Source: Gemmatimonadales bacterium (lineage in GTDB: Bacteria; Krumholzibacteriota; Krumholzibacteriia; LZORAL124-64-63). Taken from it: a stretch of DNA of 64,000 nt. The stretch's first letter is position 1; every line of letters starts with the position of its first letter. The stretch lies in the NCBI GenBank assembly GCA_019038745.1, contig JAHOYV010000046.1:32431-96430 (forward strand), in the 5' to 3' direction. Under the pieces are notes generated by a model that saw nothing but the letters and a program-made list of their open reading frames with translations, made no database searches and had not been told where the DNA came from. A program made the position numbers and the translations under genes. Of this stretch, positions 2,763 through 22,942 are shown in pieces.

Positions 2763-3782
2763 ATGAAAAACATCATCCTAATCCTCGCCGTGGTCGCCCT
2801 GGCAGCCCCCAGCTTCGCGCAAATCTCCCCTGCTCCTCTTGGCCAGGAGGCTGAAATATTCTGGTCCCACGCACCCTATGAAATGGGCGAATGCTCCATC
2901 TGCCACCAGAACAGTGATCCGAACAACCCTGGTGAATTGATCTCCGGAGTGAATGAGCTCTGCTTTTCCTGTCACGATATCTTCCAGGAGATGTTGGGGG
3001 AATTCGAGAACGTCCACTCGCCGGTAGAGAACTCCTGCATCGATTGCCATAACCCTCACAACTCACTCTACGGCAAGCTGCTGAACCTTGATACGGCCAA
3101 CCTTTGCGGAACCTGCCACGATGATATTATGGACGGGGTTCGGAATCACAAGGTCCAGCACGATGCCATCACCCAGGGCGATGCCTGCCTGACCTGCCAC
3201 GATGCCCACGCCACGAACGTGCAGGCCATGCTGCGGGCCCTGCCCTACGACTTGTGCGTCGACTGCCACGGTAAGGACGGCATGACCGATGAGCAGGGAC
3301 GTCCAATGACCAACCTGAAGAGCCTGATTGAGGGAGCCCACATGAGCCACGGCCCGGTAGAAAACAAGGACTGCTCATCCTGTCACTTCACGCATAGCGG
3401 TGACAACTTCAGGATGTTGACCGAATCCTACCCTGCCAAGTTCTATGCTCCCTACGAGGAAGAGAACTATGCGCTCTGCTTCAACTGCCACGAGAGCAAT
3501 GTTTTCACTTCCGAGTTCACCAGTACCTTGACCGGCTTCCGGGACGGCGACAACAATCTGCATTATATTCACGTAAACAAGGCCCGCCGCGGACGCACCT
3601 GCCGCTCCTGCCACGAAGTACATGCCTCACCGCAGGAACATTTGGTCCGTGACGGAGTACCTTACGGTTCCAGTGGATGGGTCCTGAAGATCAACTTCGA
3701 GAAACTTGAAAATGGTGGATCCTGCGCGAAAACCTGTCACCCGACCAAGCCCTACGACCGGGAGATGAACGCCTCACAATGA
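2763..3782 (+). CDS. Periplasmic ~10-heme cytochrome c (doubled-CXXCH family)
   Basis: Sec signal MKNIILILAVVALAAPSFA; 9 CXXCH plus terminal CAKTCH; paired CxxCHxxH...LCxxCH units. Confidence 0.92.
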   Translation: MKNIILILAVVALAAPSFAQISPAPLGQEAEIFWSHAPYEMGECSICHQNSDPNNPGELISGVNELCFSCHDIFQEMLGEFENVHSPVENSCIDCHNPHNSLYGKLLNLDTANLCGTCHDDIMDGVRNHKVQHDAITQGDACLTCHDAHATNVQAMLRALPYDLCVDCHGKDGMTDEQGRPMTNLKSLIEGAHMSHGPVENKDCSSCHFTHSGDNFRMLTESYPAKFYAPYEEENYALCFNCHESNVFTSEFTSTLTGFRDGDNNLHYIHVNKARRGRTCRSCHEVHASPQEHLVRDGVPYGSSGWVLKINFEKLENGGSCAKTCHPTKPYDREMNASQ

Positions 3783-4666
3783 AAGCCGGCTGGGCAAAGC
3801 TCCATTGTGTGAAATCAAATATGAGGGTGCATTGGCGCACCCTCAATGGAAAATGGCTATGTCTGGCCTTTACGTTGGCCCTGCTGGGCGTGGTCTCTGC
3901 TCCCGCTTCTGATCTTGCTTTCACCTTCATCGCCGAAGGCGATCTTCTGCCTGATATGGAACTGGACAGCGCCCGCGGGGGATCCGCCGGTTATCTTGGC
4001 GGGGAAGATTCCCAGGCCCGAGTCTTCGCGTTTGTGAAGGACGGCCGCGTCAGTTCCAACGAATTTCTGGAAACGATGGCCGGATTGCATGAGGAATTTT
4101 TGGGACGCCCAGTGAGCTGGTCATTGGTTGTCTCCAAACGTTGCTCTCCTGCCTGGATTGATACCGTGTGCAACCGCTGCCCGGATGTTTCGGTCCTGAT
4201 AGACAAGGATGACAAACTGTACGGAACTCTGGGAGTCCCCCTGACTCCCGTGGTTGGGATCGGGGATGGGGATCGGATCCTGCGGGCCTATTTAACCTAT
4301 CGCAAAATCAACTACCAGGCCCTGATTTCCGCCCACGTGAAATTCATTCTGGGCGACATCGACCAGGCCGAATTGGATCTGCTCCTGAACCCCCATGGTC
4401 GGATGCGGGACACGGTAGCCGGCAGCTCCGCCCGTAAGCTGAAGCTGGCCCGCCTATTGTTTGACAAGCAGAAGTTCGATCTGGCCATCAAGCAAGTGGA
4501 AAGCGCACTCAGCGAGCAACCGAACCTCCCGGAGGCCTACGAGCTGCTGGTCGAGATCCGCCTCGCCGGCGGAGACGAGGCTGGAGCCGCCGAGGCCCGG
4601 GAAAAAGCAGATGCATTGGCTGACTCGACAGCCGGTTCCGCCGAATCAAATGGAGACGGCAACTGA
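3779..4666 (+). CDS. Exported redoxin/thioredoxin-fold + TPR protein lacking CXXC active site
   Basis: Hydrophobic signal-like segment; GDLLPDMEL...VLIDKDDKLYGTLGVPLTP redoxin-like pattern; C-terminal TPR-like helices; ATGA overlap with upstream gene; exact start uncertain. Confidence 0.6.
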   Translation: MKAGWAKLHCVKSNMRVHWRTLNGKWLCLAFTLALLGVVSAPASDLAFTFIAEGDLLPDMELDSARGGSAGYLGGEDSQARVFAFVKDGRVSSNEFLETMAGLHEEFLGRPVSWSLVVSKRCSPAWIDTVCNRCPDVSVLIDKDDKLYGTLGVPLTPVVGIGDGDRILRAYLTYRKINYQALISAHVKFILGDIDQAELDLLLNPHGRMRDTVAGSSARKLKLARLLFDKQKFDLAIKQVESALSEQPNLPEAYELLVEIRLAGGDEAGAAEAREKADALADSTAGSAESNGDGN

Positions 4667-4726
4667 CCCCGAGGACTCGCCCCCATCGTTGTCGGACCTT
4701 GATTTTCACCAACAAGAGGAGTCTGT

Positions 4727-5395
4727 ATGCCCTCCCGGACGACCTGTTTGAGGATAACCACCCTGGCGGCTCTTTGCCTGCTGTCGACCGCTACGGCATG
4801 GTCGGGTGTTGAGGATTCCGTCCACGATTTCCGTACTGAATTATCCATTAACGAGGTCTGCGTCGTTTGCCACACCCCGCACAACGCGGTCGACCCCGCA
4901 GCGGCCGGCCTGGACTACGCACCCCTGTGGGGCCACGAGTCCACAGCCGGAGTGTACACCTTGTACTCCAGTGCCTCCCTCGACCATACTCCGGGGCAAC
5001 CGGACGGCAGTACCAAGCTGTGCCTGAGCTGCCACGACGGTTCCATCGCCATCGATAACTACGGCGGCACAACCACCGGCACCGTTTTCGTGGATGATGC
5101 GACTTTCGACGGTTCACCGGGATCCGCCTCGGGCAGCGCCCTGGATTTCGGAACGAACCTGGACAACGACCACCCCGTCTCGTTCAGCTACGATGCGGTG
5201 GCCACTGCGGATCCGGAAATCCTGCCCTCGACCACGGCAACACCCATCGGGGGCACCATCGCCAGCCGATTGCTGGTCGACGGCAAGGTCCAGTGCTCAT
5301 CCTGCCACGATGTGCACGATGTGGACGGCAACCCCAGTCTGTTGGTGGTCACCAACGATGGCAGCGCCCTTTGCCTGGTCTGCCACGACAAATGA
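4727..5395 (+). CDS. omcE: OmcE-like tetraheme cytochrome c (candidate nanowire subunit)
   Basis: Signal peptide; 4 CXXCH; motif order HDF..VCVVCHTPHNA..PLW..TLYSS..CLSCHDG..GTNLDNDHPVSF..QCSSCHDVHD..GSALCLVCHDK matches my recollection of G. sulfurreducens OmcE; strong RBS GAGGAG. Confidence 0.8.
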   Translation: MPSRTTCLRITTLAALCLLSTATAWSGVEDSVHDFRTELSINEVCVVCHTPHNAVDPAAAGLDYAPLWGHESTAGVYTLYSSASLDHTPGQPDGSTKLCLSCHDGSIAIDNYGGTTTGTVFVDDATFDGSPGSASGSALDFGTNLDNDHPVSFSYDAVATADPEILPSTTATPIGGTIASRLLVDGKVQCSSCHDVHDVDGNPSLLVVTNDGSALCLVCHDK

Positions 5396-6480
5396 GATCC
5401 ACAGCGAACAAAGTTCTGCTGATCGTACTTCTGAGCCTATCACTGGGTCTTCTTTTGAGTGGCTGCACCACCGCGCCCGGGCCATCGCTGAAGGAGGCGG
5501 TTTTCTACCCCAGCCCGCCGACCTCTCCTCGTCTGCAGTACCTGACCCACTATTCCGGCGCCGAGCAGGTAACCATCCAACCGGGAACCGCTTCCCGCTT
5601 TCTGTTCGGTGACTCAGCCCCCACCGAAGCCCTGTCCAAGCCCTACGGGATGGCCCTGCACGGCGGCAAACTTTACGTTTGTGATACAAAGTTAAATTCA
5701 CTAGTGATCTTCGACATCGCACAACACAGGTTTGGTTATACCGGACTTCAGGGCAGCGAACGCCTGCGCAAGCCCCTGAACCTCTGCGTGGACAACCAGG
5801 GCAACAAATTCGTGGCCGACGCCCTGCGCGGGGAAATCGTGGTATTCGATGAGAACGATGCCTGGACCACCGTTTTCGGCGGCAACCTGCTTCAGCGCCC
5901 GGTGGATGTGGCCTGGCTCGACGGCAAACTGTACGTTTGCGATGCGGACGCCTGCACCATAGTCGTTTTCGACGCGACCACCCATGAAAGGGTCACCGTC
6001 TTCGGTGGCAAGGGAGACGACCCGGGACAATTCGCGCGGCCCACCAATCTGGCTTTGGATCCCGAGGGGAACATCTACGTCAGCGACACCATCAACGGCC
6101 GTATCCAAAAGCTGGGTCCCGATGGGAATCACGTGGCCACCTTCGGCTCCCGCGGTGACCGTCCCGGGACCTTCGCCCGACCCAAGGGTGTGGCGGTGGA
6201 TCCGGAAGGCCAACTCTATGTAGTCGATGCCGCCTTTGAAAACGTCCAGATCTTCGCTCCTGCCGGCAGGATGCTGATGGACTTCGGCGGACCCGGCGCA
6301 GACCCGGGCAATCTGGTCCTTCCCGCCCAGGTGATCATCGATACCGATCACTTGTCCCTTTTCCGCGAACTGATCGAACCCGGTTTCAAGGCCGAGCATC
6401 TGGTATTGGTATCCAGCCAGTACGGACCTCGCAAAATCAGCGTCTACGCGTACGGCCGCTCCGAGGGGAGCGGCCACTGA
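5392..6480 (+). CDS. NHL-repeat six-bladed beta-propeller lipoprotein
   Basis: Start ATG 5392 (ATGA overlap); lipobox LLLSGC; repeats such as FARPTNLALDPEGNIYVSD and FARPKGVAVDPEGQLYVVD. Confidence 0.9.
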   Translation: MRSTANKVLLIVLLSLSLGLLLSGCTTAPGPSLKEAVFYPSPPTSPRLQYLTHYSGAEQVTIQPGTASRFLFGDSAPTEALSKPYGMALHGGKLYVCDTKLNSLVIFDIAQHRFGYTGLQGSERLRKPLNLCVDNQGNKFVADALRGEIVVFDENDAWTTVFGGNLLQRPVDVAWLDGKLYVCDADACTIVVFDATTHERVTVFGGKGDDPGQFARPTNLALDPEGNIYVSDTINGRIQKLGPDGNHVATFGSRGDRPGTFARPKGVAVDPEGQLYVVDAAFENVQIFAPAGRMLMDFGGPGADPGNLVLPAQVIIDTDHLSLFRELIEPGFKAEHLVLVSSQYGPRKISVYAYGRSEGSGH

Positions 6481-7139
6481 TGGGATGGAAGGGCGCGGCA
6501 GCACTCATCCTGCTGGGAATCCTGGCGGCCGGCTGCAGTGGCCCAACCCGGGACAAGTGGCTGACTGTCTTCTTTGATGATCCTCCCGTCGAACAAATAT
6601 CCAATCCCGTGGATTCCGACTTCCAGGCTACATTCACCGCACCCCGCGTAGCCGCCGCTGCAGCGGGAACAGCACACGCCCCCTTCGAAGCAGGCGCCTG
6701 TCAGGTGTGCCACGATCTTTCCGGCAGCACTTCCTTCCCCGGAGGCGGCGGCTGGCCGGGACGCGAACCTGACGCAGGAAGGGCCGACCAGTCCAAGCAC
6801 CCGGAGACTGCGGGCTCTGCCCGACTCCGTCTGCCCGGAGACCGCCTCTGCGGCGGTTGCCACAACGATCTCGACGTTGAAACCCTGGCCCAAACCAACC
6901 TCGTTGTACACGCTCCACTAGCTACCGGGGACTGCTGCTTCTGCCACGATCCGCACCGCAGTCCGTATCCACATCTCTTGAAACAGGCTGACAGTTCGGT
7001 CCTTTGCGTGGCCTGTCACGATCAGGAAGCGGCCGCACGTCGCTGTCACCATCCGGGGGCCGGGATACAATCCTGTGTATCCTGCCACCAGCCCCACGCC
7101 TCGGCCCAACGTTTCCTTCTCCGCCGGGAGGAGCCATGA
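6480..7139 (+). CDS. Pentaheme lipoprotein cytochrome c (doubled CXXCH)
   Basis: Lipobox LAAGC; CQVCH, CGGCH, CCFCH, CVACH, CVSCH. Confidence 0.88.
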   Translation: MGWKGAAALILLGILAAGCSGPTRDKWLTVFFDDPPVEQISNPVDSDFQATFTAPRVAAAAAGTAHAPFEAGACQVCHDLSGSTSFPGGGGWPGREPDAGRADQSKHPETAGSARLRLPGDRLCGGCHNDLDVETLAQTNLVVHAPLATGDCCFCHDPHRSPYPHLLKQADSSVLCVACHDQEAAARRCHHPGAGIQSCVSCHQPHASAQRFLLRREEP

Positions 7140-9127
7140 GGTTCCGAAACTTCATCTCGGCCAACTTGTTTCAATGGTTGACGGGCTTACTGCTGAGCAT
7201 CGTGCTTGCGACGGGCGCCCTGGCCAACGGCCCCGTCTACCTGGACGAGAGCTCACCCCAAAGGAAAATCGTGGCCTTGGATAACCTGGGCGGTTGGAGT
7301 GAATTCTTCGTGCGTGGGTCCCGCACACGAACGGGGGATTTTTCCCTGGATGAGACCATCCTGGCCCCGGGGATCCACCTGGATACCGCCGGTGGTCTGT
7401 ACGAGCGACAGCTGTTGACCTTTCGGGCCGGGGGAACCCTCAGCTACCAGCATCGCAGCCTGGACGGCACCGTGGAAAATTCCGACGATCTGTCTTTCCA
7501 GGATTTCGCGGGGAACCTGGATCTGCTCCCCGAAAAGCCTCTCAAACTGCACCTGTTCGGGAATCGCACGCACGGCTGGCATTCCTCGCCTTACAAAAGC
7601 AGTACGCGAACCCGCTCCACGGCTTGGGGAATCGGTGCGGATCTCGGCTTGGCTGAATTGCCCTCGACTCTGACCTGGTCACGAGAAGAATATCTGGAGG
7701 AATACTATTCCGGAGACCGGATCACGACCCGGGACCGTCTCCGCTTCGGGGTAAAACGAAGCAACGGGCCCATTCGCGGCTCCTTGACGATGCGCCACGA
7801 AGCCTTCCGCAAAAACCTCCAGCCCCAGAACTACAGCACGGACGGAGCCGACGGGCGCATCTCCTATCGACCCGGAAAAACCCTTGGCTTGGCCGGTTCC
7901 ATGCACTGGCTCCACCGTTACGGTTCCCGGGAACATACCAACTTCAGCACCCGCGCTACCACCCGCTGGAATCCCCGTCCCGACTTCGGAGGCCAGGTCG
8001 AAGCCGAACATCGACGCCTGCGTCCCGGCGGAAAAGACGTGCCCGTTGTCGCCGCCAACTCGGGAGCCCTCTCGGTTCGGCATCTGTTGTACGGGAGCCT
8101 AGAAACCACCATGGGCATGAACCTGCAAGACGAAACCAGCCGTTTGGATGATCTCGAAGTCGGAACCTTGCGCAGAACCAGCGGCCATCTCCGCCTGGAC
8201 TACAGGAGACGCCTGGCTGTTGGCGCTTTACAGCTTTCCACCAGTCGAACCTTGCTGCGTCAGGATCGGACCGGCACGGAAACCGAGCGCCCGGTGTCCA
8301 ACGAGGGGCATGTCCTGCCCGATTTGGCCGAAGTACGTCTTGAAAATCCGGACGTGGTGCCCGGTTCGGTGGTAGTTACCGACGCAACCGGGTATGTCGT
8401 CTACACGGAGAACCTGGACTTCGCCCTGACCGAAGTGGGAGGCTTCACCCTCTTGAATCGGATCCCCACCGGGGCCATCGCCGAGGACGAGCGGATCCAG
8501 GTGGATTATCGGTACCTGCTTTCTCCCGACCTGGTTTTTGACGCGGCGACCTGGAGTTTGGCCGCCCGCTTCGACGGCAACCGGGTCTGGTCGGTTTGGA
8601 CCCGGCACCAGGACACCGACGAAACTCCGGTTTCCGGATCCTCCGAAACCGGGTTGCAGGACCGAACCCGGAATGTGGCGGGCGGACTCCTGCGCCGGGG
8701 ACGGGTCACCCTGAGACAGGAATACGAAACTCATCGCCTGGCAGAAACCCGGTTCAAAACAAATCGTCTGCAGTTGGATACCCGGTTCCGACCCGGCCGC
8801 CGCTGGCGGGCTTCCGTGGGGGCCAACCACACGTGGTCCCGAACGGTCGCCCCACGACGCACCCAACGATACCTGCAGCTGAACGCCCGGACCGCATACG
8901 CCGGCGCCGGCGGTTCGACAGCAAGTCTGGAATCCTGGTTTCGCTGGAACGAGCGGGAAGACGGAATCGCCGCCCCCGGCGACGGCCTGTACGGTGGCCG
9001 ATTGCGCTACACACGTCGCTGGCGAGCCCTTACCCTTGAAGCGGAAGTCACCCTGCAAAGCACCGACCGCAACGAGATCGACGACGACCGGCTTGTCTTC
9101 CGCACCGGATTACGGAGGGTCTTCTGA
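7136..9127 (+). CDS. Large outer-membrane beta-barrel protein (~663 aa)
   Basis: Start ATG 7136 (ATGA overlap, GGAGGAG RBS); signal peptide ending ALA; alternating amphipathic strands; C-terminal Phe (RRVF). Confidence 0.75.
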   Translation: MRFRNFISANLFQWLTGLLLSIVLATGALANGPVYLDESSPQRKIVALDNLGGWSEFFVRGSRTRTGDFSLDETILAPGIHLDTAGGLYERQLLTFRAGGTLSYQHRSLDGTVENSDDLSFQDFAGNLDLLPEKPLKLHLFGNRTHGWHSSPYKSSTRTRSTAWGIGADLGLAELPSTLTWSREEYLEEYYSGDRITTRDRLRFGVKRSNGPIRGSLTMRHEAFRKNLQPQNYSTDGADGRISYRPGKTLGLAGSMHWLHRYGSREHTNFSTRATTRWNPRPDFGGQVEAEHRRLRPGGKDVPVVAANSGALSVRHLLYGSLETTMGMNLQDETSRLDDLEVGTLRRTSGHLRLDYRRRLAVGALQLSTSRTLLRQDRTGTETERPVSNEGHVLPDLAEVRLENPDVVPGSVVVTDATGYVVYTENLDFALTEVGGFTLLNRIPTGAIAEDERIQVDYRYLLSPDLVFDAATWSLAARFDGNRVWSVWTRHQDTDETPVSGSSETGLQDRTRNVAGGLLRRGRVTLRQEYETHRLAETRFKTNRLQLDTRFRPGRRWRASVGANHTWSRTVAPRRTQRYLQLNARTAYAGAGGSTASLESWFRWNEREDGIAAPGDGLYGGRLRYTRRWRALTLEAEVTLQSTDRNEIDDDRLVFRTGLRRVF

Positions 9128-10176
9128 TGCTCCGGTGGAATACACACCGACACGCGGGGATAGGTTTCCTGCTGGTGGGTACCTGGTTGGCGGCAAATAG
9201 TTTCCCCTTTCCTGCACAAGCCCAGGACCTTGTCTTTCCTGCCCCACCGGCCGAGGCCCGACTGGCCTACCTCGGTGAGATTTCCGACCTGGAGGCGTTC
9301 AGCAAGCCCCGAAACCTCATCGGCAAACTGACGGATTGGATCGCCGGAGGCAGACAGAAGCCACAATTGATTCAGCCTCACGGAGTAGGCCTGGGCGATG
9401 ACGCTCTGCTGGTAGCGGACCCGGAAACGGGCTTCGTTCACTACTTTTCCCTGGCTGATTCCACCTGGAAACGGATCCCGGCGAAGAACAGGCTGCACTC
9501 GCCAGTGGATGCCGCATCGGGACCGGACGGGGTGATCTTCATCTCGGATTCCGGGGCAGCCCAGGTAGTGGCCTGTGACAAGAACGGCGAAATCCTCTTT
9601 GCCTGCGACGGCCCTTTTGTCCGTCCCACCGGTCTGGCCTTCGACCAAGGCAGCGGACGCCTGCTTGTCGCCGATGCCGCCGCCCACCACCTGGTTTGGG
9701 TTGATCCGGACGGTAGCCGGTTGGGAACAATCGGGTGCCGGGGCACGGAGCCCGGGGAGTTCAACTTCCCCATCGACATTGCACTGACCTCCACGGGAAA
9801 CATTCTGGTCCTGGATGCCCTTAACTTTCGAATCCAGGTTCTGGATGGAGACGGGAATTTCGTGCGGGAATTCGGAGTCCAGGGCGATTCACCCGGCCGT
9901 TTCTCCAGACCACGCGGCCTTTGTGCCGACGCGGCAGACAACATCCTGGTTACGGACGCCCTGCAGGACAATTTCCAGATCTTCGACGCCACCGGACGTT
10001 TGTTACTGGCTGTGGGCGGCACGGGCCGGGATCCTGGATCGTTCTGGATGCCCGCGGGAATCTGCGCCGGGACCGATGGTCGCATTTTCGTAGCCGACGC
10101 CTACAATCGCCGGGTCCAGGTCTTTGCCTACCTGGCATCGTCCGGGCAGGACGGGCCGGAAGAAGGATCAGAATAA
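9127..10176 (+). CDS. NHL-repeat beta-propeller protein
   Basis: Signal peptide; repeats EFNFPIDIALT, FSRPRGLCAD, FWMPAGICAG..IFVADAYNRRVQVF. Confidence 0.9.
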   Translation: MLRWNTHRHAGIGFLLVGTWLAANSFPFPAQAQDLVFPAPPAEARLAYLGEISDLEAFSKPRNLIGKLTDWIAGGRQKPQLIQPHGVGLGDDALLVADPETGFVHYFSLADSTWKRIPAKNRLHSPVDAASGPDGVIFISDSGAAQVVACDKNGEILFACDGPFVRPTGLAFDQGSGRLLVADAAAHHLVWVDPDGSRLGTIGCRGTEPGEFNFPIDIALTSTGNILVLDALNFRIQVLDGDGNFVREFGVQGDSPGRFSRPRGLCADAADNILVTDALQDNFQIFDATGRLLLAVGGTGRDPGSFWMPAGICAGTDGRIFVADAYNRRVQVFAYLASSGQDGPEEGSE

Positions 10177-11897: not shown

Positions 11898-11918
11898 CCG
11901 CCGGGTCAGTCTTCAGGA

Positions 11919-12941
11919 TCAGTCTTCCGGATAACCATCCGGGTTTTCGGACTGCCAACGCCAGGCATCAACACACATCTCGGACAGCCCCTTCTCTGCA
12001 CGCCAGCCGAGCAAGGAAGCAGCCATGGCTGAATCGGCATAACAAGTAGCAATGTCTCCAGCTCGCCGATCGCCAATCCGGTAGGAAATTTCCCGGCCGG
12101 AGGCTTCCCTGCCTGCGGCAATCATCTCCAGGACCGAATACCCCTGGCCGGTGCCCAAATTCACGGCCGTGCAGCCCGGTAATCCAGGCAATTTTTCCAG
12201 GGCGACCAGATGTCCCAAGGCGAGATCAACAACGTGGATATAATCACGGACACCCGTTCCATCCGGCGTTTCGTAATCATCGCCGAAAACAACCACTTCC
12301 TCCCTCAAGCCTACGGCCACCTGCATGACGTAGGGCATCAGATTGTTGGGAATGCCATTGGGATCTTCCCCGATACGTCCACTGGAATGAGCCCCGATGG
12401 GGTTGAAATACCTCAGCAACAAACAGCGCCAGCGATCATCGGCAAGACACTGGTCGCGCAGGATCTCCTCGATGAAATACTTGGTCCGCCCATAGGGGTT
12501 TGTCGTCTGCAGAGGAAAATCCTCGGTGATCGGAACACTAGCCGGATCACCGTAAACAGTTGCCGATGAAGAAAAAACGATGTTCCGGCAATCGTGTTTG
12601 TCCATGGCCTTCATGAGTTCGAATGTACCGTGGAGATTATTCTCGTAGTAGCGCAGGGGTATTTCACAGGATTCGCCAACGGCTTTCAGGCCGGCGAAGT
12701 GGACCACGGCATCGAAAGTGTGTTCCTCGAACACCCTCTCCAAGGCAACCGCATCGCAAAGATCAACCTGACGGAACTCCAGGGATCGGCCGACCAACTC
12801 CTCGACCCGCCGCAGGCTCTCCTGGCTGGAATTGACCAAATTGTCCACAACGACCACATCGTGCCCGGCTTTGAGCAATTCCACGCAGGTATGGCTACCG
12901 ATATAGCCTGCCCCACCGGTTACCAAAATATTCTTTGCCAT
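11919..12941 (-). CDS. galE: UDP-glucose 4-epimerase
   Basis: [50 protein letters not shown]; start chosen 9 nt after AGGAGA. Confidence 0.96.
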
Positions 12942-14655: not shown

Positions 14656-15943
14656 CCCAATCAACGGCAGCAGCGCAGGCGCCCTGCCCCTGAATGCCCC
14701 CGAGGCAACCGGCCATGGCGACCATGAGGTCTGCCTCCCCCTGGCCGAGCAGGGCCGGGTCCCCTTCATCACGCCGGGAGTCATGGTACTCATGGGCTTT
14801 GCGGCTATCGGGCTCCTCGTTTTGGCCGCCCGGTTCATCTTCGGCATCGGTGCGGTGACCAACCTGGACAACCAGTACCCCTGGGGACTGTGGATCGGCA
14901 TCGACGTGGCTACCGGAGTGGCCCTGGCCGCCGGTGGATTCACAACCGCCTTCATCGCCCACGTCCTGCACCAGAATCGTTACCACGAAATCGTCCGGCC
15001 CGCCTTGTTGACGGCGATGCTCGGCTACACTTTCGTGGCCCTGGGTGTGGTCGTGGATCTGGGCCGCTACTACAACATTTGGCACGTGCTGGTGCCGAAG
15101 TACTGGCAGGGTAATTCAGCCCTCTTCGAAGTGGGTATGTGCGTCTGCATCTACTTGACGGTGCTGTACATCGAGTTCCTGCCCATCGTGTGCGAGCGAT
15201 TCATCGGCCGGATCAACCTGCCGGGCCCCCTTGGAGCATTGAACGGCCCACTGGATAAGATCCTACGCCTGGCTGATGCAGCCTTGAACAAAACCATCAC
15301 GTTCTTCATCATCATGGGCGTCGTCCTGTCCTGTGCTCACCAGTCATCGCTGGGTACCCTGATGGTCATCGCCCCGACCAAGCTACACGCGCTTTGGTAC
15401 ACGCCGATCCTGCCGCTTCAGTTCCTGCTTTCAGCCTTCGCAGTGGGCCTGGCAATGGCCATTTTCGAGTCGCTGATCGCCTCAAGGTCGTTCAAACGGC
15501 CCTTCGAGATGAGCGTTCTGTCGCCGCTGGGACGGATGATTCCCTTCCTGCTGACGATCTATTTCGCAGCCAAGCTCATTGACCTGGTCAACCGCGGCGT
15601 CTTGCCGCTGGCCCTGGAGCCGACCCTCCAGGCAGCGACTTTCTGGATCGAGATCATCGGCGGAGTGCTCCTGCCCATTTTCATCTTCCTGATCCACGGC
15701 TTGCGCCGCCGGCCCGGTTGGCTATTCGCTGCCGCGGCCATGGTGGTCCTGGGCGTGGCCCTGAACAGGGTCAATGTATTCATCATCGGATATAAACCGT
15801 TGTTCGGTGACGGACCCTACGTTCCGGCCATTCCCGAGGTCCTCCTGACCATCGGCTTCATCTCCATCCTGACCCTGGTCTACCGGGCCTGGGTATTCAT
15901 CTTCCCGATTCTCCCGGTAGAAGGAGGTCACGACAATGCGTAG
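14648..15943 (+). CDS. hybB: NrfD/HybB-family quinone-interacting membrane subunit
   Basis: GAVTNLDNQYPWGLWIGIDVATGVALAAGG, VDLGRY, HQSSLG motifs; about 10 TM helices. Confidence 0.88.
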   Translation: MNNPINGSSAGALPLNAPEATGHGDHEVCLPLAEQGRVPFITPGVMVLMGFAAIGLLVLAARFIFGIGAVTNLDNQYPWGLWIGIDVATGVALAAGGFTTAFIAHVLHQNRYHEIVRPALLTAMLGYTFVALGVVVDLGRYYNIWHVLVPKYWQGNSALFEVGMCVCIYLTVLYIEFLPIVCERFIGRINLPGPLGALNGPLDKILRLADAALNKTITFFIIMGVVLSCAHQSSLGTLMVIAPTKLHALWYTPILPLQFLLSAFAVGLAMAIFESLIASRSFKRPFEMSVLSPLGRMIPFLLTIYFAAKLIDLVNRGVLPLALEPTLQAATFWIEIIGGVLLPIFIFLIHGLRRRPGWLFAAAAMVVLGVALNRVNVFIIGYKPLFGDGPYVPAIPEVLLTIGFISILTLVYRAWVFIFPILPVEGGHDNA

Positions 15944-17123
15944 CTTTTCTGCAACAAGACTCATTCTCCTGATGGTGATGTTGATAATCTTCCTGGTTCC
16001 ATTGGCCGCATTCGGAGCCGCATCCGGGACAGCGTCCGACCAAGTGGTAGATAAGGATCACCCCCAGGACAAGATGCATCAGGAAGAAACCGGTCGGAAA
16101 TTGCAGTCCTGCCTGGACTGCCACAAGTGCAAACGCCCCACTCGAAAAGACCCCTGTCTGGTGGCTTGCCCACGCTACGAGAGTCACTTCTTCAGCCAGC
16201 AGCAGGTAGAGGAAAGCCCGGAAATCATCATCATCGATCAGCTTTCCGAATTGTACGGGTCCGTTGTCTTCGCCCACCGCTTACACGCGGAAATGGCCGA
16301 GATGGCGGGCGGTTGCGAAACCTGCCACCACTATTCCGAGCAATCCGGGGTCATCCCACCTTGCCGTGAATGTCACGATGAAGAGCGTAACGTAGTGGAC
16401 CTGTCCAAGCCCGCCCTGAAGGGGGCCTACCACCGGCAGTGCATGAATTGCCACTTGGACTGGAGCCATGAAAACGCCTGCGGCTTCTGCCATGAGCAAG
16501 CCACCGACGAGTTGAGTGCAGTCACACCCGACACCACCGATATCGTGGGCATCCCGCATCCGATCATTGCGGCCACGCCTACCTACACCTACAACACGCC
16601 CCACGAGGACGGCCCCATCGTCACCTTCCACCACAATGACCACGTGGATATGTTTGGTCAGAAGTGTGTGGACTGCCACCGGGGAGACAGTTGCAGTCGC
16701 TGCCACGATGCCGATCGAGAAGAGGCGAAGCCGCTGAATCACATCACGAGCTGCTGCTCCTGCCACGGCAAGCGGGATTGTACGTTCTGCCACAAGGATG
16801 AGGCGATGCCCAACTTCGAGCATGGGTTGTCCACCGGGTGGTCGCTGGAGCCGTATCACACGGGCAAGGACTGCACCTTGTGCCACGGCAAGCCGGATTC
16901 CTTCCGTAAGCCGGAGACCACATGCACTTCCTGCCATATCCACTGGGAGGATGGAGCATTCAACCACGCCGTTACCGGTTTGACGCTGGACGACGACCAT
17001 ATCGACAGCGATTGCGTGGATTGTCACGTTAAGTTGGAGTTTACGATCACTCCCACTTGTGACAACTGCCACGACGAACCCATGCTGCCGGAAAAAATCC
17101 CCGGTCGATTGAAACTGCATTGA
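15936..17123 (+). CDS. 13-heme cytochrome c3-family (HmcA-like) protein
   Basis: Signal peptide; 13 CXXCH; c3-type motifs VVFAHRLH and LKGAYHRQCMNCH. Confidence 0.92.
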   Translation: MRSFSATRLILLMVMLIIFLVPLAAFGAASGTASDQVVDKDHPQDKMHQEETGRKLQSCLDCHKCKRPTRKDPCLVACPRYESHFFSQQQVEESPEIIIIDQLSELYGSVVFAHRLHAEMAEMAGGCETCHHYSEQSGVIPPCRECHDEERNVVDLSKPALKGAYHRQCMNCHLDWSHENACGFCHEQATDELSAVTPDTTDIVGIPHPIIAATPTYTYNTPHEDGPIVTFHHNDHVDMFGQKCVDCHRGDSCSRCHDADREEAKPLNHITSCCSCHGKRDCTFCHKDEAMPNFEHGLSTGWSLEPYHTGKDCTLCHGKPDSFRKPETTCTSCHIHWEDGAFNHAVTGLTLDDDHIDSDCVDCHVKLEFTITPTCDNCHDEPMLPEKIPGRLKLH

Positions 17124-17181: not shown

Positions 17182-18156
17182 TTAAAAACCCACTACATAC
17201 TGAATGACGGCCAAGTCCTCTAGATTGTCCCCGAACTGGTACTCGCAACGAATCTCGGCCCCCTCGCGCAGAACCCAACCACCACCCAGGCACAGGCGAT
17301 TCGTTTCAGGGTAGACAGCAGCGGGCGAATAGTTGCCATAGCGGGCAAAGACACTGTACTGCTCGAAACGATACAAACCCTGTGCGTAGTATCCCTCGTT
17401 AGTCTCCGGGTGGTCGGTGTTCTGGCCGAGTTTATGCGAAATGAATTCTCCCTTGGCGGAGAAAGCCCCCAATTCGAGCTGTCCATCCACACCCAACAAT
17501 GACTGAAATTCATCGCCGGCTTCATTGGCAACCGAGGCGTATGAAACGCCTACCTCTACCCTCTCGGTGGGCAGAAATCCCAAGCGACTCCCGAAGGCCA
17601 GGTCGGCCGTTTCGGTCTCGGAATCGAGTCCGTTGGTCACATAGAAAACGGCATTGAACGGACCATTCTCCAGATAGCTCATCATGCCCAAATCATTCCA
17701 ACCGTCGTGAGTCCCGGCCACCGCGATTGGCCCGGTTACAAGCTGGCGGTCGATTGAGGGATAGACCAGCCAGTCAATACCAAACGGAACATCGAACTGG
17801 CCAATGATTATGCCGGCGTGCTCAATCGAGGCTTCATTGAAATGGGTCTCAGCGTCGCCGAAGAGACGGAAATCAATGGTCATGGCGCCGAGTACGAAAG
17901 ACTCGCCCGCGGGATCATAGCCCATGGCCACACCCAGATCGATGCAATCGTCAATACTCGCCGCGATATCCACCTCTACTTGTCCCCAAAAAAATCCGGT
18001 ATCTCCCTCTTCGGAATCATCAACGACAACCTGCTGAAAATCAGCAAATCCACAGACGACCAACTCCGGTGCATCCTGCGCGACGGCCGAAGCGGTACAA
18101 AAACACACAACAAATACAAAGGTCAGAATATCGGTACAGCCTTTGCGATTTCCCAT
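17182..18156 (-). CDS. Outer-membrane porin (OprO/P-like beta-barrel)
   Basis: Signal peptide; IIIGQFDVPFGIDW motif typical of this porin class; amphipathic strands; C-terminal YVVGF. Confidence 0.75.
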   Translation of the reverse strand: MGNRKGCTDILTFVFVVCFCTASAVAQDAPELVVCGFADFQQVVVDDSEEGDTGFFWGQVEVDIAASIDDCIDLGVAMGYDPAGESFVLGAMTIDFRLFGDAETHFNEASIEHAGIIIGQFDVPFGIDWLVYPSIDRQLVTGPIAVAGTHDGWNDLGMMSYLENGPFNAVFYVTNGLDSETETADLAFGSRLGFLPTERVEVGVSYASVANEAGDEFQSLLGVDGQLELGAFSAKGEFISHKLGQNTDHPETNEGYYAQGLYRFEQYSVFARYGNYSPAAVYPETNRLCLGGGWVLREGAEIRCEYQFGDNLEDLAVIQYVVGF

Positions 18157-18541
18157 GATTGGATCTCCTTGGGCGGATATTTCAACACGTACACATCATG
18201 TTGTTTTTCGCCAAAAAGTCACAGGACTTGAGATCATGTTGTTGTTATTGGAGTTTTTTGAGAGGGGTGGTCCATATTCTGCCTGAAAGGCCGCCCAAAA
18301 CACTATTCGCGTAATTTCCCTTCCTCCACCACCGCAAGCCGACGAGATGAAACAGCAGGAACTGTACTCTTGCTACAATACTACCTCTTTACCTAGCAAC
18401 TGGTTAGGGCGCCTCATGGGAAATTTAAATATTTTAGCCTTATTTTAAACCATTTATTGTGATATCATGCTATTAATCGAATCTACAACTACCGGGATAT
18501 TTCTTCAATCCCGGACAAAAAACAGCAAAAGGAAAACCTCC

Positions 18542-18949
18542 GTGAACAACAATTACAAAATCAAGGGTCTCCTTTTGGGGTTTACCCTGATTCTGTGCGG
18601 GGCTACGGCCAGCGCAGCAATTGAAGACCAGGCTGTAATCGACGGCGGGATCAATCTGGAGGCAATGGTAGCCAAACATGTCGTCGTTTCGGTTACGAAC
18701 ATCGAAGTTAATCCCGACGGCACCGTAATCAACGGCCAGGTCAAGCGGCACCGTTTCGGGCCTCGTGGCCCGCTTGATGGAACAGTGGCGTTGGATGTTG
18801 TTTCTGCGGACGGTGAAGTTCTACAGCGCGTTTCCGGCAATATTTCCCCGAAGTTCGTCCCCAAGGGAATCCGGACTTCGACCTTCAGCATCACAATTCC
18901 CAAGAACTATCCGTTGGACGCCGCGTTCAAGCTTAGTTTTGTCGAGTAA
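18542..18949 (+). CDS. Small exported hypothetical protein (Ig-like beta-sandwich?)
   Basis: Probable GTG start after AAGGA; signal peptide ending ASA; beta-rich mature part. Confidence 0.6.
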   Translation: MNNNYKIKGLLLGFTLILCGATASAAIEDQAVIDGGINLEAMVAKHVVVSVTNIEVNPDGTVINGQVKRHRFGPRGPLDGTVALDVVSADGEVLQRVSGNISPKFVPKGIRTSTFSITIPKNYPLDAAFKLSFVE

Positions 18950-19025: not shown

Positions 19026-20195
19026 CTACTCGACACCCGGCCCAAAGCTGGCATGACGCTCCCACTTGCGGTCGTCGTCGTGACAGTTGTCACAGGTCGT
19101 ATGCTGTCCATACCCCTCGGAGTGGCAGTCCGAGCAATCTGAATCCAGATGCACCTCGTCCAGCACAACACCCGTCACATTGTGGTTGAAGTGTTTCTCG
19201 TCGAAACCATCGAAGTGACAGGTCTCGCAACGAGGATCATTGGCCTGGTACTTGCCCGGGTCATGGTGGCAGTCATTGCACTGCAGCACCTTGTGATAGG
19301 CCTCCAGTGGCCAACCGATATCCGCGTGATCAAACAGATCATTGGAATTCCGACCGTGGCACTCCTTGCACCCTTTTTCCTCGTCATGGCACTGATAACA
19401 AGTGTCATGCAAGTCGATGTCCTCGATCAGCCCCAGGGGATGAGAATCTGAGCCATGTACGTGGCAGCTGGCACAGGTCTCATTCTGGTGGCAGACACTG
19501 CAATCACGGTTGTACTGTTCAACGTGGTTATGGTGATGGAAAGGAACGACGCCTCCCTCTTCATAACTGGTTTCAAACAGGATCAGATCCTTAACTATCA
19601 GCGGGGCCTGGTGAATCAGATCGGGCAGAGCATCGATCTCGGCCTTTGACATGCCACCTTCCTTTTTACGGTGACACCACTCGCAATGAGTTTCGGTGTC
19701 CCACTCGGAGTGGCAGTTGAGACATTGGCGATGGTAAGCAGCCTTCAAACTGGGTTGAATCTTGCTTTTTACGCCTTCGGGGGCATGACATTCCTTGCAG
19801 GCGGGATGCCCTGCCGTAGCCGGTGCGAAGTGGTGGCAGTTCACGCAACCGCCCCCCATCTCGGACATCTGGGCATGCTTCTCGTGGCTGAAGTACACCG
19901 GGTCGTAGACCTTCTCCAGTTCATCCAGAACCATAACTTTTTCCTGGGGCAAGCCCGATTCACCCTTCTTCACCTTGCTTCTGATGCAGAAATTCTTGCT
20001 CAGACAAAGATCGGAATGGGTGGGAAACTCGCAGGTATGACAAAGCGAGCAGGCCAGATTTTCTCCTGCCTCCGGGACATAATCCTCGAAGGCCAAGAGA
20101 GGGGAGGCCGCAAAAATCAAGACCCCTCCCATAATCAGGGCCAAGGCCCTCCCGGCAGAGCGCCGGCCAAATCCGTGAATACTTCCAGTCCGCAT
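19026..20195 (-). CDS. 13-heme cytochrome c3-family protein (paralog of 15936-17123)
   Basis: Signal peptide; 13 CXXCH colinear with the other copy (FSHEKH, LKAAYHRQCLNCH, FNHNVTGVVLDEVH). Confidence 0.92.
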   Translation of the reverse strand: MRTGSIHGFGRRSAGRALALIMGGVLIFAASPLLAFEDYVPEAGENLACSLCHTCEFPTHSDLCLSKNFCIRSKVKKGESGLPQEKVMVLDELEKVYDPVYFSHEKHAQMSEMGGGCVNCHHFAPATAGHPACKECHAPEGVKSKIQPSLKAAYHRQCLNCHSEWDTETHCEWCHRKKEGGMSKAEIDALPDLIHQAPLIVKDLILFETSYEEGGVVPFHHHNHVEQYNRDCSVCHQNETCASCHVHGSDSHPLGLIEDIDLHDTCYQCHDEEKGCKECHGRNSNDLFDHADIGWPLEAYHKVLQCNDCHHDPGKYQANDPRCETCHFDGFDEKHFNHNVTGVVLDEVHLDSDCSDCHSEGYGQHTTCDNCHDDDRKWERHASFGPGVE

Positions 20196-20344: not shown

Positions 20345-20400
20345 GATGGCACCTTTCCCGGGCACGGCCCCTTCGAACAGGGACCGGCCGATCTTCCGAT

Positions 20401-21639
20401 CTAGTTGTCGTCCATGTCTGCGGCCCAGGCCGGCGGATCACTCAGTACAGGCATCCGCATGACGACCCAACGCACAGCCCACAGTTCCAGCAAAACAACG
20501 GTCACGGTCACCCAAATCTCTGCCCAGTGGGGAATGTAAGGAGTCGGATCAAACCAGTTGAAGGCGATTACGGAAATATTCAACCGGTTCAAAAGAATTC
20601 CGATCAGGGTCAATCCCGCAGCCACCTTGATCAACTGGACGTTACCCTCCCGAACAGCCTTGAAGTACAAGACCAAGGGGACGAGAACGAATCCTACCAC
20701 CTCAAGCAGGAACCATAAGCCCCACTTGGTACCCAGCAGACTGAACTGCTGACCGTGAATAACCACCAGAACCTTCAGGAACAGATAAACGAACATCGCC
20801 CCGGCGCAGATCCGGCCCAAGCCGATTACAATGTCGTCCTGATTGGCATGTTGTTCGTGACCCAGACGAGCCGCGAAAACCTTATGACTGATCGATCCCT
20901 CGAAGATCACCATGGAGAGGCCCGAGAAAATACTGGAGACGAAGAACAGGACCGGAATAAACTCCGTGTACCACAGCGGATGAATCTTGCTCTCGGCCAT
21001 CAGGAAAAGAGCACCCAAACCCGACTGGTGCAGGGTCGACAGGGTAATACCGAAGATCACTGAAGCGATGGTCAGACCGCCTACAATCTTCCGCAGCCTC
21101 TTCATCCCCAACCACTCGGCAATTGCAGGCGAGAACTCAATGAACTCGGCAGCCATGTAGAGCAGGAAGTGCCAGGCCACCAGGAAAAGCACCGAACTGA
21201 CCCCGAAGTTGTTGCCGATGATCGGGTTGATGATTTTCCAGGGACGACCAAGATCCAGCATCAAGGCTCCGGCATAGAACATGTAGGCCAGGAACCCGTT
21301 GAGAACCACGGCCCGAACGATGGCGTGATAACGATGCCGTCCCATGATGTAGACGATGAAAGTCAGCGTGTAGGCTCCGCCTGCAAACGCTACCCCGCAC
21401 ACCACGTCAAAACCGATCCAGATACCCCACGGCGTCTGCTGATCAAGATTCGTGATGGCCCCGATCCCATTGACGAAGCGCAGGACGATCAGCCCCATGC
21501 CCACCAGGATTACGGGAATGGATATCATGTTGAAGGGAGTAAGAATTTTCCCCTTCGGCTTCATCTCGCTTAGGAGGAAGCGAACGAAATCCCCGATGCT
21601 CCCGATATTGGGCTTCGCGGTTTCCTGAATTTTGTTCAT
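20401..21639 (-). CDS. NrfD/HmcC-family membrane subunit
   Basis: LTPFN..GAITNLDQQTPWGIWIGFDVVCGVAFAGG, LDLGRPW, LHQSGLG; multiple TM helices. Confidence 0.9.
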   Translation of the reverse strand: MNKIQETAKPNIGSIGDFVRFLLSEMKPKGKILTPFNMISIPVILVGMGLIVLRFVNGIGAITNLDQQTPWGIWIGFDVVCGVAFAGGAYTLTFIVYIMGRHRYHAIVRAVVLNGFLAYMFYAGALMLDLGRPWKIINPIIGNNFGVSSVLFLVAWHFLLYMAAEFIEFSPAIAEWLGMKRLRKIVGGLTIASVIFGITLSTLHQSGLGALFLMAESKIHPLWYTEFIPVLFFVSSIFSGLSMVIFEGSISHKVFAARLGHEQHANQDDIVIGLGRICAGAMFVYLFLKVLVVIHGQQFSLLGTKWGLWFLLEVVGFVLVPLVLYFKAVREGNVQLIKVAAGLTLIGILLNRLNISVIAFNWFDPTPYIPHWAEIWVTVTVVLLELWAVRWVVMRMPVLSDPPAWAADMDDN

Positions 21640-22547
21640 GATTCCTCCCCGGGACCACGGCCCGTTTCAACCGACGCCACATCATTATGAGTCTTGTCGG
21701 TATGCTCATCGTCCTCGTTGGTCTTGATGTACCGCATCCCGTTCAAAAAGGCCGGCCAGAGCAGAAACACGACTGGAACCGAGTAAAGAAAATTCTGCGT
21801 CAAGGCGGGAACCGATTCACGTCCCAGGTCGGTGCGGAAACCGAGCTGATCGAAAGGGACCCCAGAGAGGTACATCCAACCCGTTCCTCCGACTTCTTCC
21901 TGCCCGTAGATATGATCGATGTACTGGCCGGGATATTCGAAGGTCCGGTTTTGGGCGACCCGCTCCATATCCCGACGGAAACCGAATTCCAAAGCATCCA
22001 CCGGACAAGCATCGACACAAGCGGGCTTTTCTCCCTCGATCACCCGGTCGTAGCAGAGGATACACTTCTGGATTTTTGGATTCGCGCTGTAGTATTCAAA
22101 ACGTGGGACGACAAAGGGGCAGGACACCATACAGAAACGGCACCCCATGCACTTGCCCTCACGCCAGATAACCGGTCCCTCTTCGGTCTTGTACATGGCC
22201 TGGGTCAAACACGCAGTGGAACAGGCGGCCTGATTACAGTGCATACACTGTTTCTTGACGAAGACCTCTCCGGCGTCGGTATCGTACTTGTTGACGACCG
22301 TCCATTGGTCGGTCGTCATGTCCCGCTCCTCTTTGAACACATCGCGGGTAGTTTTCGGAATCGGCAAATCGTTCTGCGTGGCGCAGGCCACTTCGCAGTT
22401 CCGACAACCGATACACCGGGTCGTGTCCACCAACACCGACATGAACTCAGTCTCTGCCGGCTTACCTGACGCCTCCGCCAAAGATGGCAATGCAGCCGAA
22501 GTGACTCCGGCCACACACAGGTTCTTTATGAAATTCCGTCTGTCCAT
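21636..22547 (-). CDS. Tat-exported 4Fe-4S subunit (HybA/HmcB family)
   Basis: MDRRNFIK Tat motif; CIGCRNCEVAC, CMHCNQAACSTAC, CMGCRFCMVSCP, KCILC..PACVDACP; C-terminal TM. Confidence 0.9.
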   Translation of the reverse strand: MDRRNFIKNLCVAGVTSAALPSLAEASGKPAETEFMSVLVDTTRCIGCRNCEVACATQNDLPIPKTTRDVFKEERDMTTDQWTVVNKYDTDAGEVFVKKQCMHCNQAACSTACLTQAMYKTEEGPVIWREGKCMGCRFCMVSCPFVVPRFEYYSANPKIQKCILCYDRVIEGEKPACVDACPVDALEFGFRRDMERVAQNRTFEYPGQYIDHIYGQEEVGGTGWMYLSGVPFDQLGFRTDLGRESVPALTQNFLYSVPVVFLLWPAFLNGMRYIKTNEDDEHTDKTHNDVASVETGRGPGEES

Positions 22548-22588
22548 CCTCAAACCTTTCCGATCAAGGGGAATCGACTGAAACCACC

Positions 22589-22942
22589 CTAGTCATCGGT
22601 GATGATCTCCAGGGGATTGATCTCCAGAGCGAGCTCTCCCCTCCTCTTCATACCGTCAATCAGAACCGTGCGGATCAATTGGCAAGCTTCGACAATTCTC
22701 TTGTCGGCGGGCTTGTAAAACACCTTAGTTCCCTCCTGGCGGGAAGTCACTAAGTGTTTGTTCTTCATCACACTCAAGTGCCTGCTTACCGTGGAAAGCG
22801 GAACTTCGAGGCACTCCGAAAGCTCGGTAACGCTCATTTCACGCCGGTCCAAACACGCCATAATGGCCAGTCGTTTGGAACTGGCCAAGGCGCGACAATA
22901 TGACGCGTGAATTTCAAATATTTCATAGTTCTGAACTTTCAT
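22589..22942 (-). CDS. ArsR/SmtB-family transcriptional regulator
   Basis: RALASSKRLAIM..EMSVTEL..STVSRHL..LVTSRQEGTKVFY; start set at ATG 22942 from promoter position. Confidence 0.9.
   Translation of the reverse strand: MKVQNYEIFEIHASYCRALASSKRLAIMACLDRREMSVTELSECLEVPLSTVSRHLSVMKNKHLVTSRQEGTKVFYKPADKRIVEACQLIRTVLIDGMKRRGELALEINPLEIITDD

Follow-up and report, generated by a model that had tools for sequence, protein, structure and literature searches.

The window analysed here is a stretch of 64,000 nucleotides (contig JAHOYV010000046.1, positions 32,431 to 96,430) from the genome of an uncultured bacterium whose source habitat is marine sediment. Between genes for PrkA and an M16 peptidase it carries about 20 kb of haem-rich DNA (positions 2763–22942 of the window), while the remaining window consists of housekeeping genes according to Pfam and NCBIfam. 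An earlier interpretation made from the letters alone (the sequence-only reading) had counted 55 CXXCH and 2 CX3CH haem motifs in six cytochromes of this stretch, and our own gene model gives the same total in six exported cytochromes (9+1, 4, 5, 11+1, 13, and 13 motifs). Six of the 23 open reading frames with at least three CXXCH motifs in the entire genome lie here. The same reading proposed one electron path leading from inner membrane to outside the cell, interrupted only by galE and a small exported gene; a TPR protein and two NHL beta-propellers are present too. On comparison with related genomes, the 20 kb stretch is a mosaic rather than one inherited island. Its central part (4727–11897) is, judged by homology and gene content, a member of the OmcE-type outer-membrane and extracellular cytochrome cassettes, and uet-like by description. 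The finding is a further cassette of a recently described kind, in a little-known phylum, beside two native quinone modules.

The cassette consists of six plus-strand genes that overlap by 1–4 nt and, because of these overlaps, are read as one operon. The first gene, OmcE4 (4727–5395, four CXXCH), encodes a tetrahaem homologue of OmcE and candidate filament subunit. It is followed by NHL1 (5392–6480), a six-bladed NHL beta-propeller lipoprotein (NHL 75.7 bits, lipobox LLSGC); by c5 (6480–7139), a pentahaem lipoprotein with five CXXCH and lipobox Cys19; by a predicted giant outer-membrane beta-barrel of 663 amino acids (7136–9127); by NHL2 (9127–10176), an NHL beta-propeller (103 bits) with an ordinary signal peptide and no lipobox Cys; and by c12 (10176–11897), a 12-haem cytochrome with 11 CXXCH and one CX3CH.

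By scanning species-representative genomes we confirmed 638 loci of this kind, and the gene-content counts given here and below refer to the best 80 of the 638. These 80 come from Planctomycetota, Verrucomicrobiota, Bacteroidota, Ignavibacteriota, Calditrichota, Zixibacteria, Myxococcota, Nitrospirota, Pseudomonadota, and Thermodesulfobacteriota. The order tetraheme, NHL, (cytochrome), (barrel), NHL, c12 is found in 34 loci and a permuted order in 8. The tetraheme has a gene of its own in 52 loci (42 of the 49 loci of at least 15 kb), and loci L037 and L081 possess two tandem tetrahaem genes. NHL1 was found in 77 loci (at least 60 bits over at least 40% of the query), and in most of the 80 the gene immediately upstream of c12 is NHL2. 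The barrel was detected by tblastn in only 44 loci, at 19–32% identity; 18 loci with no barrel match have a gap of 2.0–3.9 kb between the two NHL genes. Conservation within the cassette is highest in c12, with 6137 relatives at E ≤ 1e-10 among 8000 scored and a full-length identity of about 50% across phyla. Cultured organisms with a c12 homologue include Desulforhopalus sp. IMCC35007 (locus L072), Azoarcus sp. DN11, and Thiohalobacter sp. IOR34.

The tetraheme, which the sequence-only reading had called OmcE-like, is a true OmcE homologue, with full-length matches to the OmcE filaments of G. sulfurreducens (7TFS, E = 3.2e-18) and D. soudanensis (9YUQ, E = 1.2e-21). A family profile built from 24 homologues strengthens both matches (7.5e-43 and 3.9e-40, respectively). 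In addition to its four CXXCH motifs the protein contains five other conserved histidines (H33, H52, H70, H149, and H197), of which H33, H52, H149, and H197, together with the four motifs, are invariant in the tetraheme alignment (A6). The ninth histidine, H70, is present in 94% of 52 standalone tetrahaems and is replaced by Arg in both solved OmcE proteins. An AlphaFold2 (AF2) model of the tetraheme, computed from 24 homologues and with no haems, reached a pLDDT of 52.5, too poor for conclusions on the fold.

The last gene of the cassette contains a second version of the same module. Residues 1 to about 216 of c12 form an OmcE-like tetrahaem domain (E = 1.7e-25 against 7tfs over residues 7–231 of 232), and the remainder is an octahaem extension. 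In an alignment of 18 of the 120 listed c12 matches, picked to span the named phyla (A1), all eight haem ligands of the N-domain are invariant, as is H225 just after the fourth haem motif. At the position of H70 a histidine is found in 11% of 45 c12 N-domains and Arg in the present c12. In a quick IQ-TREE search with the 52 standalone tetrahaems and the first 45 of 77 c12 N-domains, the 45 N-domains form one group apart from the standalone proteins (SH-aLRT 94). Four loci (L114, G168:C195; L116, G171:C143; L117, G058:C7; L118, G169:C35) have a split c12, with adjacent genes for an OmcE-like tetraheme and an octahaem cytochrome, and these variant cassettes possess extra NHL and tetraheme genes in front.

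The barrel is predicted by AF2 (pLDDT 84.3, pTM 0.67) to have about 29–30 strands and a small inserted domain, and its translation shows a signal peptide. It has no Pfam match, and Foldseek returned only generic large barrels with TM of at most 0.38. The inserted beta domain (residues ~395–462) is its best-conserved part, with D428, R442, G446, I448, and Y458 invariant (alignment A2); in NCBIfam it resembles, weakly and under the cut-off (22.7 bits), a model for the phage tail tube. In c5 the lipobox Cys19 is invariant among 19 homologues (alignment A3), and in all 19 it is followed by a motif of the type VL(S/T)FFFDGVP (VLSFFFDGVP in the present protein), possibly a strand by which the protein docks to the barrel or to a propeller.

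Directly upstream of the cassette, on the same strand, lie genes for c10, an exported decahaem cytochrome (2763–3782; nine CXXCH and one CX3CH), and for an exported protein with a C-terminal TPR region, supported by weak TPR matches only (3821–4666). The c10 protein scores 161 bits against Paired_CXXCH_1 and 77.7 bits against the NCBIfam model decahem_SO (cut-off 192.2), and it is in part MtrA/DmsE-like, with homology to the MtrA chain 6r2q_A (E = 1e-10 over residues 90–214). The c10 and TPR pair recurs in a genome of the same family (G169:C35; 60% and 47% identity), a TPR gene stands beside c10 in locus L068 as well (25% identity), and several Phycisphaerae loci have c10-like genes upstream of their tetraheme. 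In total, c10-like genes were found near the cassette in 39 of the 80 loci, a number to be read with the cross-matching of the c10 query to other cytochromes in mind. From this recurrence of its members next to the cassette, the pair is a recurrent accessory, predicted to be periplasmic.

A large barrel beside multihaem cytochromes, one of them a lipoprotein, is likewise characteristic of MtrCAB and of the Pcc and Ext conduits of Geobacter. The partial homology of c10 to MtrA extends this likeness to MtrCAB, and so does MtrB, which ranks third when the barrel is searched by structure. However, no MtrC/OmcA-type protein was found, the barrel has no family match, and its 29–30 strands compare with 26 in MtrB, at a TM of 0.35. 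Neither a decahaem cytochrome of the MtrA/DmsE family nor a barrel of the MtrB family, the two components by which an MtrCAB system is recognized, was identified here by these scores.

The closest published counterpart is the minimal omcE cluster, which according to the accessible text of Petersen et al. (2026, PMC13712944) consists of the OmcE subunit, two beta-propeller lipoproteins, two multihaem cytochromes, and a large barrel. The part list of 4727–11897 is the same, with an OmcE-type tetraheme, two propellers, two multihaem cytochromes, and a large barrel in both. This likeness to the Desulfuromonadia cluster is one of part lists by description, and sequences were compared for the OmcE subunit only, in which the homology covers the full length and the four CXXCH motifs and four distal histidines are kept. 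Several differences set the present cassette apart. Its Krumholzibacteriota-like host falls outside the five phyla named in the accessible text of that paper, and it has no glycosylation gene block but a lone galE. The present tetraheme has the ninth conserved histidine (H70). Compared with two propeller lipoproteins in the published clusters, NHL1 has a lipobox Cys and NHL2 has a signal peptide with no such residue. The present c12 has its OmcE-like N-domain, whereas the accessible text of the paper describes the OmcE operons as encoding no candidate for an anchor or tip. Relative to that part of the published account, the OmcE-like domain of c12 and the ninth histidine of the tetraheme appear as new details.

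A second relative, similar by description and not by sequence, is the uet cluster of ‘Ca. Tenderia electrophaga’ and other Tenderiales and of Gallionella, as presented in the accessible parts of two sources (bioRxiv 10.1101/2022.05.06.490989; PMC10734462). By description, both clusters begin with a tetraheme (the extracellular UetA in uet) and contain an outer-membrane barrel (UetC) and two NHL proteins (UetH and UetI). The last gene of both encodes a large cytochrome, UetJ being described as an 11–12-motif cytochrome of the ‘doubled CXXCH / cytochrome c3 family’, and c12 receives the same Pfam and NCBI labels. Only the uet cluster, in that description, includes a peptidyl-prolyl isomerase (UetB), trihaem c7 proteins (UetD, UetE, and UetG), a cupredoxin (UetF), and ccsAB downstream; no such domains were found by Pfam and NCBIfam in 2763–12941. 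The two NHL genes are adjacent in uet and separated in the present cassette. The word OmcE does not occur in the Tenderiales preprint (bioRxiv 10.1101/2022.05.06.490989), nor do the words Uet and Tenderia occur in Petersen et al. (PMC13712944).

Multihaem cytochromes with NHL beta-propellers, proposed to form an outer-membrane complex, are also reported for D. ferrophilus IS5 (DFE_448–451 and DFE_461–465; Deng et al. 2018, PMC5815863, accessible part). We considered these clusters as the closest match and rejected them on their haem counts (12, 12, 6, NHL and 14, 16, NHL, 7, 7; table S4 of PMC5815863). They are better seen as an analogue, in which protein sizes differ and, as far as the accessible part of PMC5815863 describes them, no tetrahaem OmcE-like member is present.

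The genome of the present bacterium contains a second nanowire-type cluster on a different contig (C29:12900–27900; 4922–19925 of locus L119). Its products are a pair of hexahaem homologues of OmcS (6ef8, E = 4.7e-47), an NHL protein, a 7-haem cytochrome, a 1077-residue cytochrome with 42 CXXCH motifs, and three unannotated proteins, one of which, at 767 residues, is possibly a barrel.

Downstream of the cassette lie two further groups of genes that differ from it in orientation or regulation. The first is headed by a MarR-family regulator with a C-terminal Cys cluster (13116–13667, plus strand, identified by Pfam), followed on the same strand by FeS_B (13726–14655), a Tat-exported HmcB/HybA-like 4x[4Fe-4S] protein with a C-terminal helix, NrfD_B (14648–15943), a HybB/HmcC-like integral membrane quinone-site subunit, and c13_B (15936–17123), an exported 13-haem cytochrome with 13 CXXCH, one CXXCK, and a domain like cytochrome c3 and the C-terminus of HmcA. 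The second, on the minus strand, is headed by an ArsR/SmtB-family regulator (22589–23050; NF033788 74 bits, cut-off 55) and contains FeS_C (21636–22547), a Tat-exported HmcB-like iron–sulphur subunit (HmcB 317.9 bits, cut-off 420; TIGR01409 TAT signal 19.7, cut-off 16.7), NrfD_C (20401–21639), an HmcC-like membrane subunit (HmcC 418.5 bits, cut-off 550), and c13_C (19026–20195), a second 13-haem cytochrome with 13 CXXCH. The two quinone modules claimed by the sequence-only reading are therefore real as FeS and NrfD pairs (13726–15943, plus strand; 20401–22547, minus strand), with Pfam NrfD scores of 77.7 and 57.5 bits (cut-off 25.8) and Fer4_11 scores of 58.6 and 70.9 bits (cut-off 26.2). The regulatory elements, announced as three, came to two, namely the MarR and ArsR/SmtB proteins, as scans for Rfam families, promoters, and terminators identified no third: an Rfam search of positions 1–26000 gave no match at the gathering score, and sites resembling promoters (5 compared with 7.5 expected) or terminators (19 compared with 18.9 expected) were no more frequent than by chance.

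The 13-haem proteins c13_B and c13_C are paralogous (37% identity), c13_B matches 2e84_A (E = 2.8e-13), and a c3-like domain is common to the 13-haem proteins and the C-terminus of HmcA. Relatives of c13_B number 531 at E ≤ 1e-10 among 1371 candidates, the nearest named ones being from Candidatus Krumholzibacteria, and a 13-haem cytochrome is present in 19 of 24 genomes of the same family. In two genomes (G018 and G009) the MarR, FeS, NrfD, and c13 genes stand alone as a four-gene unit. Judged from these comparisons, both FeS/NrfD/13-haem modules are typical of the lineage, paralogous, and each provided with its own regulator. The Cys cluster in the MarR tail (C157-x2-C160-GG...C168) is kept in the G018 and G009 homologues (alignment A4), which suggests a metal-binding, iron–sulphur, or redox-sensing tail.

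In combining a Tat-exported FeS protein and an NrfD-family subunit with a multihaem cytochrome that is periplasmic and has a c3-like domain, the modules resemble Hmc, Nhc, and Qrc of sulfate reducers, HybAB of hydrogenase 2, and the NetBCD system of Aeromonas. The last is a quinol dehydrogenase-type system, compared here by description and not by sequence. The present cytochromes have 13 haems rather than 16, 9, or 6. No HmcDEF or QrcB-type subunits are present, and there is no adjacent hydrogenase. That the modules are quinone-pool interfaces is plausible on these resemblances.

The relationship between the modules and the cassette was examined at related loci and in whole genomes. No NrfD or 13-haem match was found in any of the 80 cassette loci from other phyla, 48 of which extend at least 8 kb downstream of c12, and only 5 of the 80 gave FeS matches, all weak (~30% identity). 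MarR, ArsR, and galE, as well as the porin and the small exported gene described below, were matched in none of the 80. Within the phylum, FeS, NrfD, and c13 were absent from all 14 cassette loci, where several contigs end close to c12 and the absence is for this reason weak evidence. At the level of genomes, a 13-haem homologue of full extent is missing from all five cassette-bearing relatives, in which the NrfD genes are on contigs other than that of the cassette. Among 40 relatives, c12 and the barrel occur in only 1 of 24 same-family genomes, and a same-genus genome (96% complete) contains no c12, barrel, or 13-haem cytochrome. Across the phylum, c12 is patchy, with 13 of 200 other sampled genomes possessing it. 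The cassette also differs in composition, with a GC content of 61.7% that none of the genome's 882 seven-kb windows reaches (mean 56.2, standard deviation 2.1). From the patchy distribution, the independence from the modules, and the extreme GC content, we conclude that the cassette was probably acquired by lateral transfer and inserted next to the lineage-typical modules.

These results bear on the sequence-only reading as a whole, which had treated the island as one unit to be traced by synteny in relatives and had named unlinked, independently distributed operons as the outcome that would speak against it; the cassette and the modules are indeed distributed independently. Parts of its path stand, in that the FeS/NrfD/13-haem modules are plausible quinone-pool interfaces, and a path from the inner membrane to the exterior could plausibly be assembled from the parts present; as a unit of 20 kb, it is not supported by the comparative evidence.

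The explanation that we favour, with a probability of roughly 0.7, is that separately inherited redox units stand side by side: a uet-like OmcE cassette, its c10-TPR accessory, and two native quinone modules. The predicted ~30-strand barrel would provide a passage or an anchor in the outer membrane, and the pentahaem lipoprotein c5 and c12 would carry electrons through or at it, either cytochrome being a candidate for the barrel interior. Outside the cell, the haem chain would be continued by the tetrahaem OmcE homologue, most likely in polymeric form and stabilized by inter-subunit ligation of haems by histidine; we infer such filaments from the homology to OmcE. The two NHL propellers could have a role in assembly or scaffolding. 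In the periplasm, c10 and the 13-haem proteins would shuttle electrons, and the modules may pass electrons to or from the cassette by way of these periplasmic multihaem proteins, a contact suggested by proximity only. Such coupling is possible because the genome, 91% complete, has no NrfD-family genes besides the two of the stretch.

Several observations weigh against this explanation or parts of it. The conserved ninth histidine means that haem ligation in the tetraheme, and hence polymerisation, may differ from that of OmcE. The modules remain below every HmcB, HmcC, HmcA, HybA, and HybB equivalog cut-off of NCBIfam, although they belong to the NrfCD/HybAB/Hmc superfamily: FeS_B scores 328 bits against HmcB (cut-off 420) and 251 bits against HybA (cut-off 263), NrfD_B 361.5 bits against the HybB type (cut-off 450), the HmcC scores are 267 and 418 bits (cut-off 550), and HmcA reaches 53 bits (cut-off 400). 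No conserved linkage of modules and cassette was seen in the 80 and 14 loci. The genome also has other candidate entry points at the inner membrane, a CbcL-like fusion on contig C2 and a NapC/NirT-like cytochrome on contig C42. Finally, GC content at third codon positions is not unusual in the cassette genes, so that composition alone is no proof of transfer.

The alternative entry points are central to the best placed of the competing explanations, to which we attach a substantial but clearly smaller chance. It holds that the modules serve other periplasmic redox metabolism, in the manner of Hmc, Nhc, or Qrc, by connecting soluble donors or reductases of the periplasm with the quinone pool, with no dedicated tie to the cassette, and that the cassette is fed by CbcL-like or NapC/NirT-like proteins encoded elsewhere. 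The modules do occur in most of those family members in which the cassette is missing. The C2 protein (C2:149317–151239, minus strand; 6315–8237 of locus L122) is a 640-residue fusion of a periplasmic domain with 11 CXXCH motifs and a C-terminal cytochrome b561/Ni_hydr_CYTB domain; CbcL-like in architecture, it is a candidate alternative quinol oxidase for extracellular electron transfer. Octahaem Multi-haem_cyto proteins on contigs C10 and C57 are possible clients of the modules. However, no client enzyme adjoins the modules in the window, nor in G009 and G018 as queried with the island proteins only, and the proximity of modules and cassette, which may be due to chance, is left unexplained.

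In the modules and cassette that we favour as separate units, the direction of electron flow could also be inward. It is possible, if somewhat doubtful, that the cassette, in the manner of uet, imports electrons supplied by Fe(II) minerals, by cathodes, or by partner cells, the HmcBC-like modules acting as quinone reductases. Complexes of the Hmc and Qrc type reduce quinone in sulfate reducers, and the present genome has one haem-copper oxidase gene. According to the accessible text of the Tenderiales preprint (bioRxiv 10.1101/2022.05.06.490989), electron uptake is the function assigned to the uet cluster, whose expression on cathodes is high and whose parts are alike, namely an extracellular tetraheme, a barrel, a pair of NHL proteins, and a cytochrome with 11 haems. 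Against this, the likeness to Uet rests on descriptions rather than sequences, and the OmcE of Geobacter and Desulfuromonas acts in outward transfer (PMC13712944, accessible text). As multihaem chains are reversible, the sequence is compatible with either direction.

The histidine patterns of c12 and the tetraheme fit a possible role of c12 as an adaptor or of the tetraheme as a cap. As to the first, we speculate that a single cassette, ancient and laterally mobile, underlies both the omcE clusters known from metal reducers and the uet clusters known from electron-uptake bacteria, and that it occurs in well over a dozen phyla. In this view the UetJ-like c12 would be the base or adaptor that the nanowire has so far lacked, its tetrahaem module docking on the standalone tetraheme by the same swap of His-haem ligands and its octahaem rod reaching the barrel. 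This proposal is tentative, and we consider it rather less likely than not. It fits the split forms with adjacent genes, the invariant H225 of c12, and the ninth histidine of the standalone subunits.

The second role would mean that no long filament exists and that a discrete porin-cytochrome complex is formed, with the nine-histidine tetraheme capping the OmcE-like domain of c12. The near-universal H70, replaced by Arg in both filament-forming OmcE proteins, and the canonical eight-ligand pattern kept in c12 point in this direction, and Petersen et al. (PMC13712944, accessible text) argue that a four-haem OmcE-like protein with nine histidines would be a terminator or anchor. Yet the tetraheme retains all eight canonical ligands, including the N-terminal His33, and tandem tetrahaem genes such as those in L037 and L081 are expected of major subunits; the poor AF2 model leaves H70 unplaced in the fold. 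We regard a cap as unlikely and retain the polymer as the more probable arrangement in the cassette.

The least probable explanation, one co-evolved outward pathway from quinol through NrfD/FeS, the 13-haem proteins, the 10-, 5-, and 12-haem cytochromes, and the barrel to an OmcE filament, has in its favour that all parts, including the only NrfD genes of the genome, lie within 20 kb between housekeeping genes and that there are precedents for each step (NetBCD-type quinol dehydrogenases, the MtrA-like c10), but we regard it as unlikely: the 13-haem and cassette genes are distributed independently in relatives, at the level of both loci and genomes, and it is further opposed by the deviating composition of the cassette relative to its flanks, the separate regulators and orientations of the three units, and an apparently ordinary porin in place of the second ‘barrel’.

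That porin (17182–18156, minus strand, 324 amino acids, no CXXCH) was one of two outer-membrane barrels in the sequence-only reading. Both are predicted to be beta-barrels, but by its model this one is probably a diffusion porin of the OprO/P type and not a cytochrome conduit. It resembles clusters of PF07396 (Porin_O_P, 16-strand porins selective for phosphate or anions) in Atlas features (0.98) and structure (TM 0.82), with no PF07396 Pfam match at E ≤ 0.01. Next to it is a gene for a small exported protein (18467–18949, plus strand) with no Pfam or NCBIfam match. The gene galE, for UDP-glucose 4-epimerase (11919–12941, minus strand; TIGR01179 441.5 bits, cut-off 262.3), is convergent with the cassette, and its absence from the 80 related loci indicates that it is not kept beside it. 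Another assembly, of what is probably the same source sample, contains the junction of c12, galE, and MarR intact (share of words 1.00).

With this cassette, the OmcE-type extracellular cytochrome systems gain a host in an uncultured marine-sediment lineage of the FCB group, probably Krumholzibacteriota as judged by the named relatives of c13_B, for which iron cycling had been inferred only from FeGenie matches to OmcS and Cyc2 (PMC7914226, accessible text). With 638 confirmed loci in species-representative genomes, such cassettes extend far beyond the five phyla reported in the accessible text of PMC13712944. The N-domain of c12 offers a concrete candidate for the anchoring or termination of wires. 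For annotation, the locus is a caution that adjacent haem-rich operons are no evidence of one pathway, as the neighbours here were inherited independently.

Two further observations concern other parts of the genome and window. Contig C28 (725–3907, locus L128) encodes a 9-CXXCH cytochrome beside a 652-residue protein with four rhodanese domains, which is reminiscent of the rhodanese lipoprotein in the ExtHIJKL cluster of Geobacter. Two paralogous tricorn-type proteases of about 1100 residues (PD40 propeller, PDZ, and S41) are encoded at 54932–58252 of the window and on contig C68 (1311–4637 of locus L126), and the gene on C68 adjoins that of an 11-haem cytochrome.

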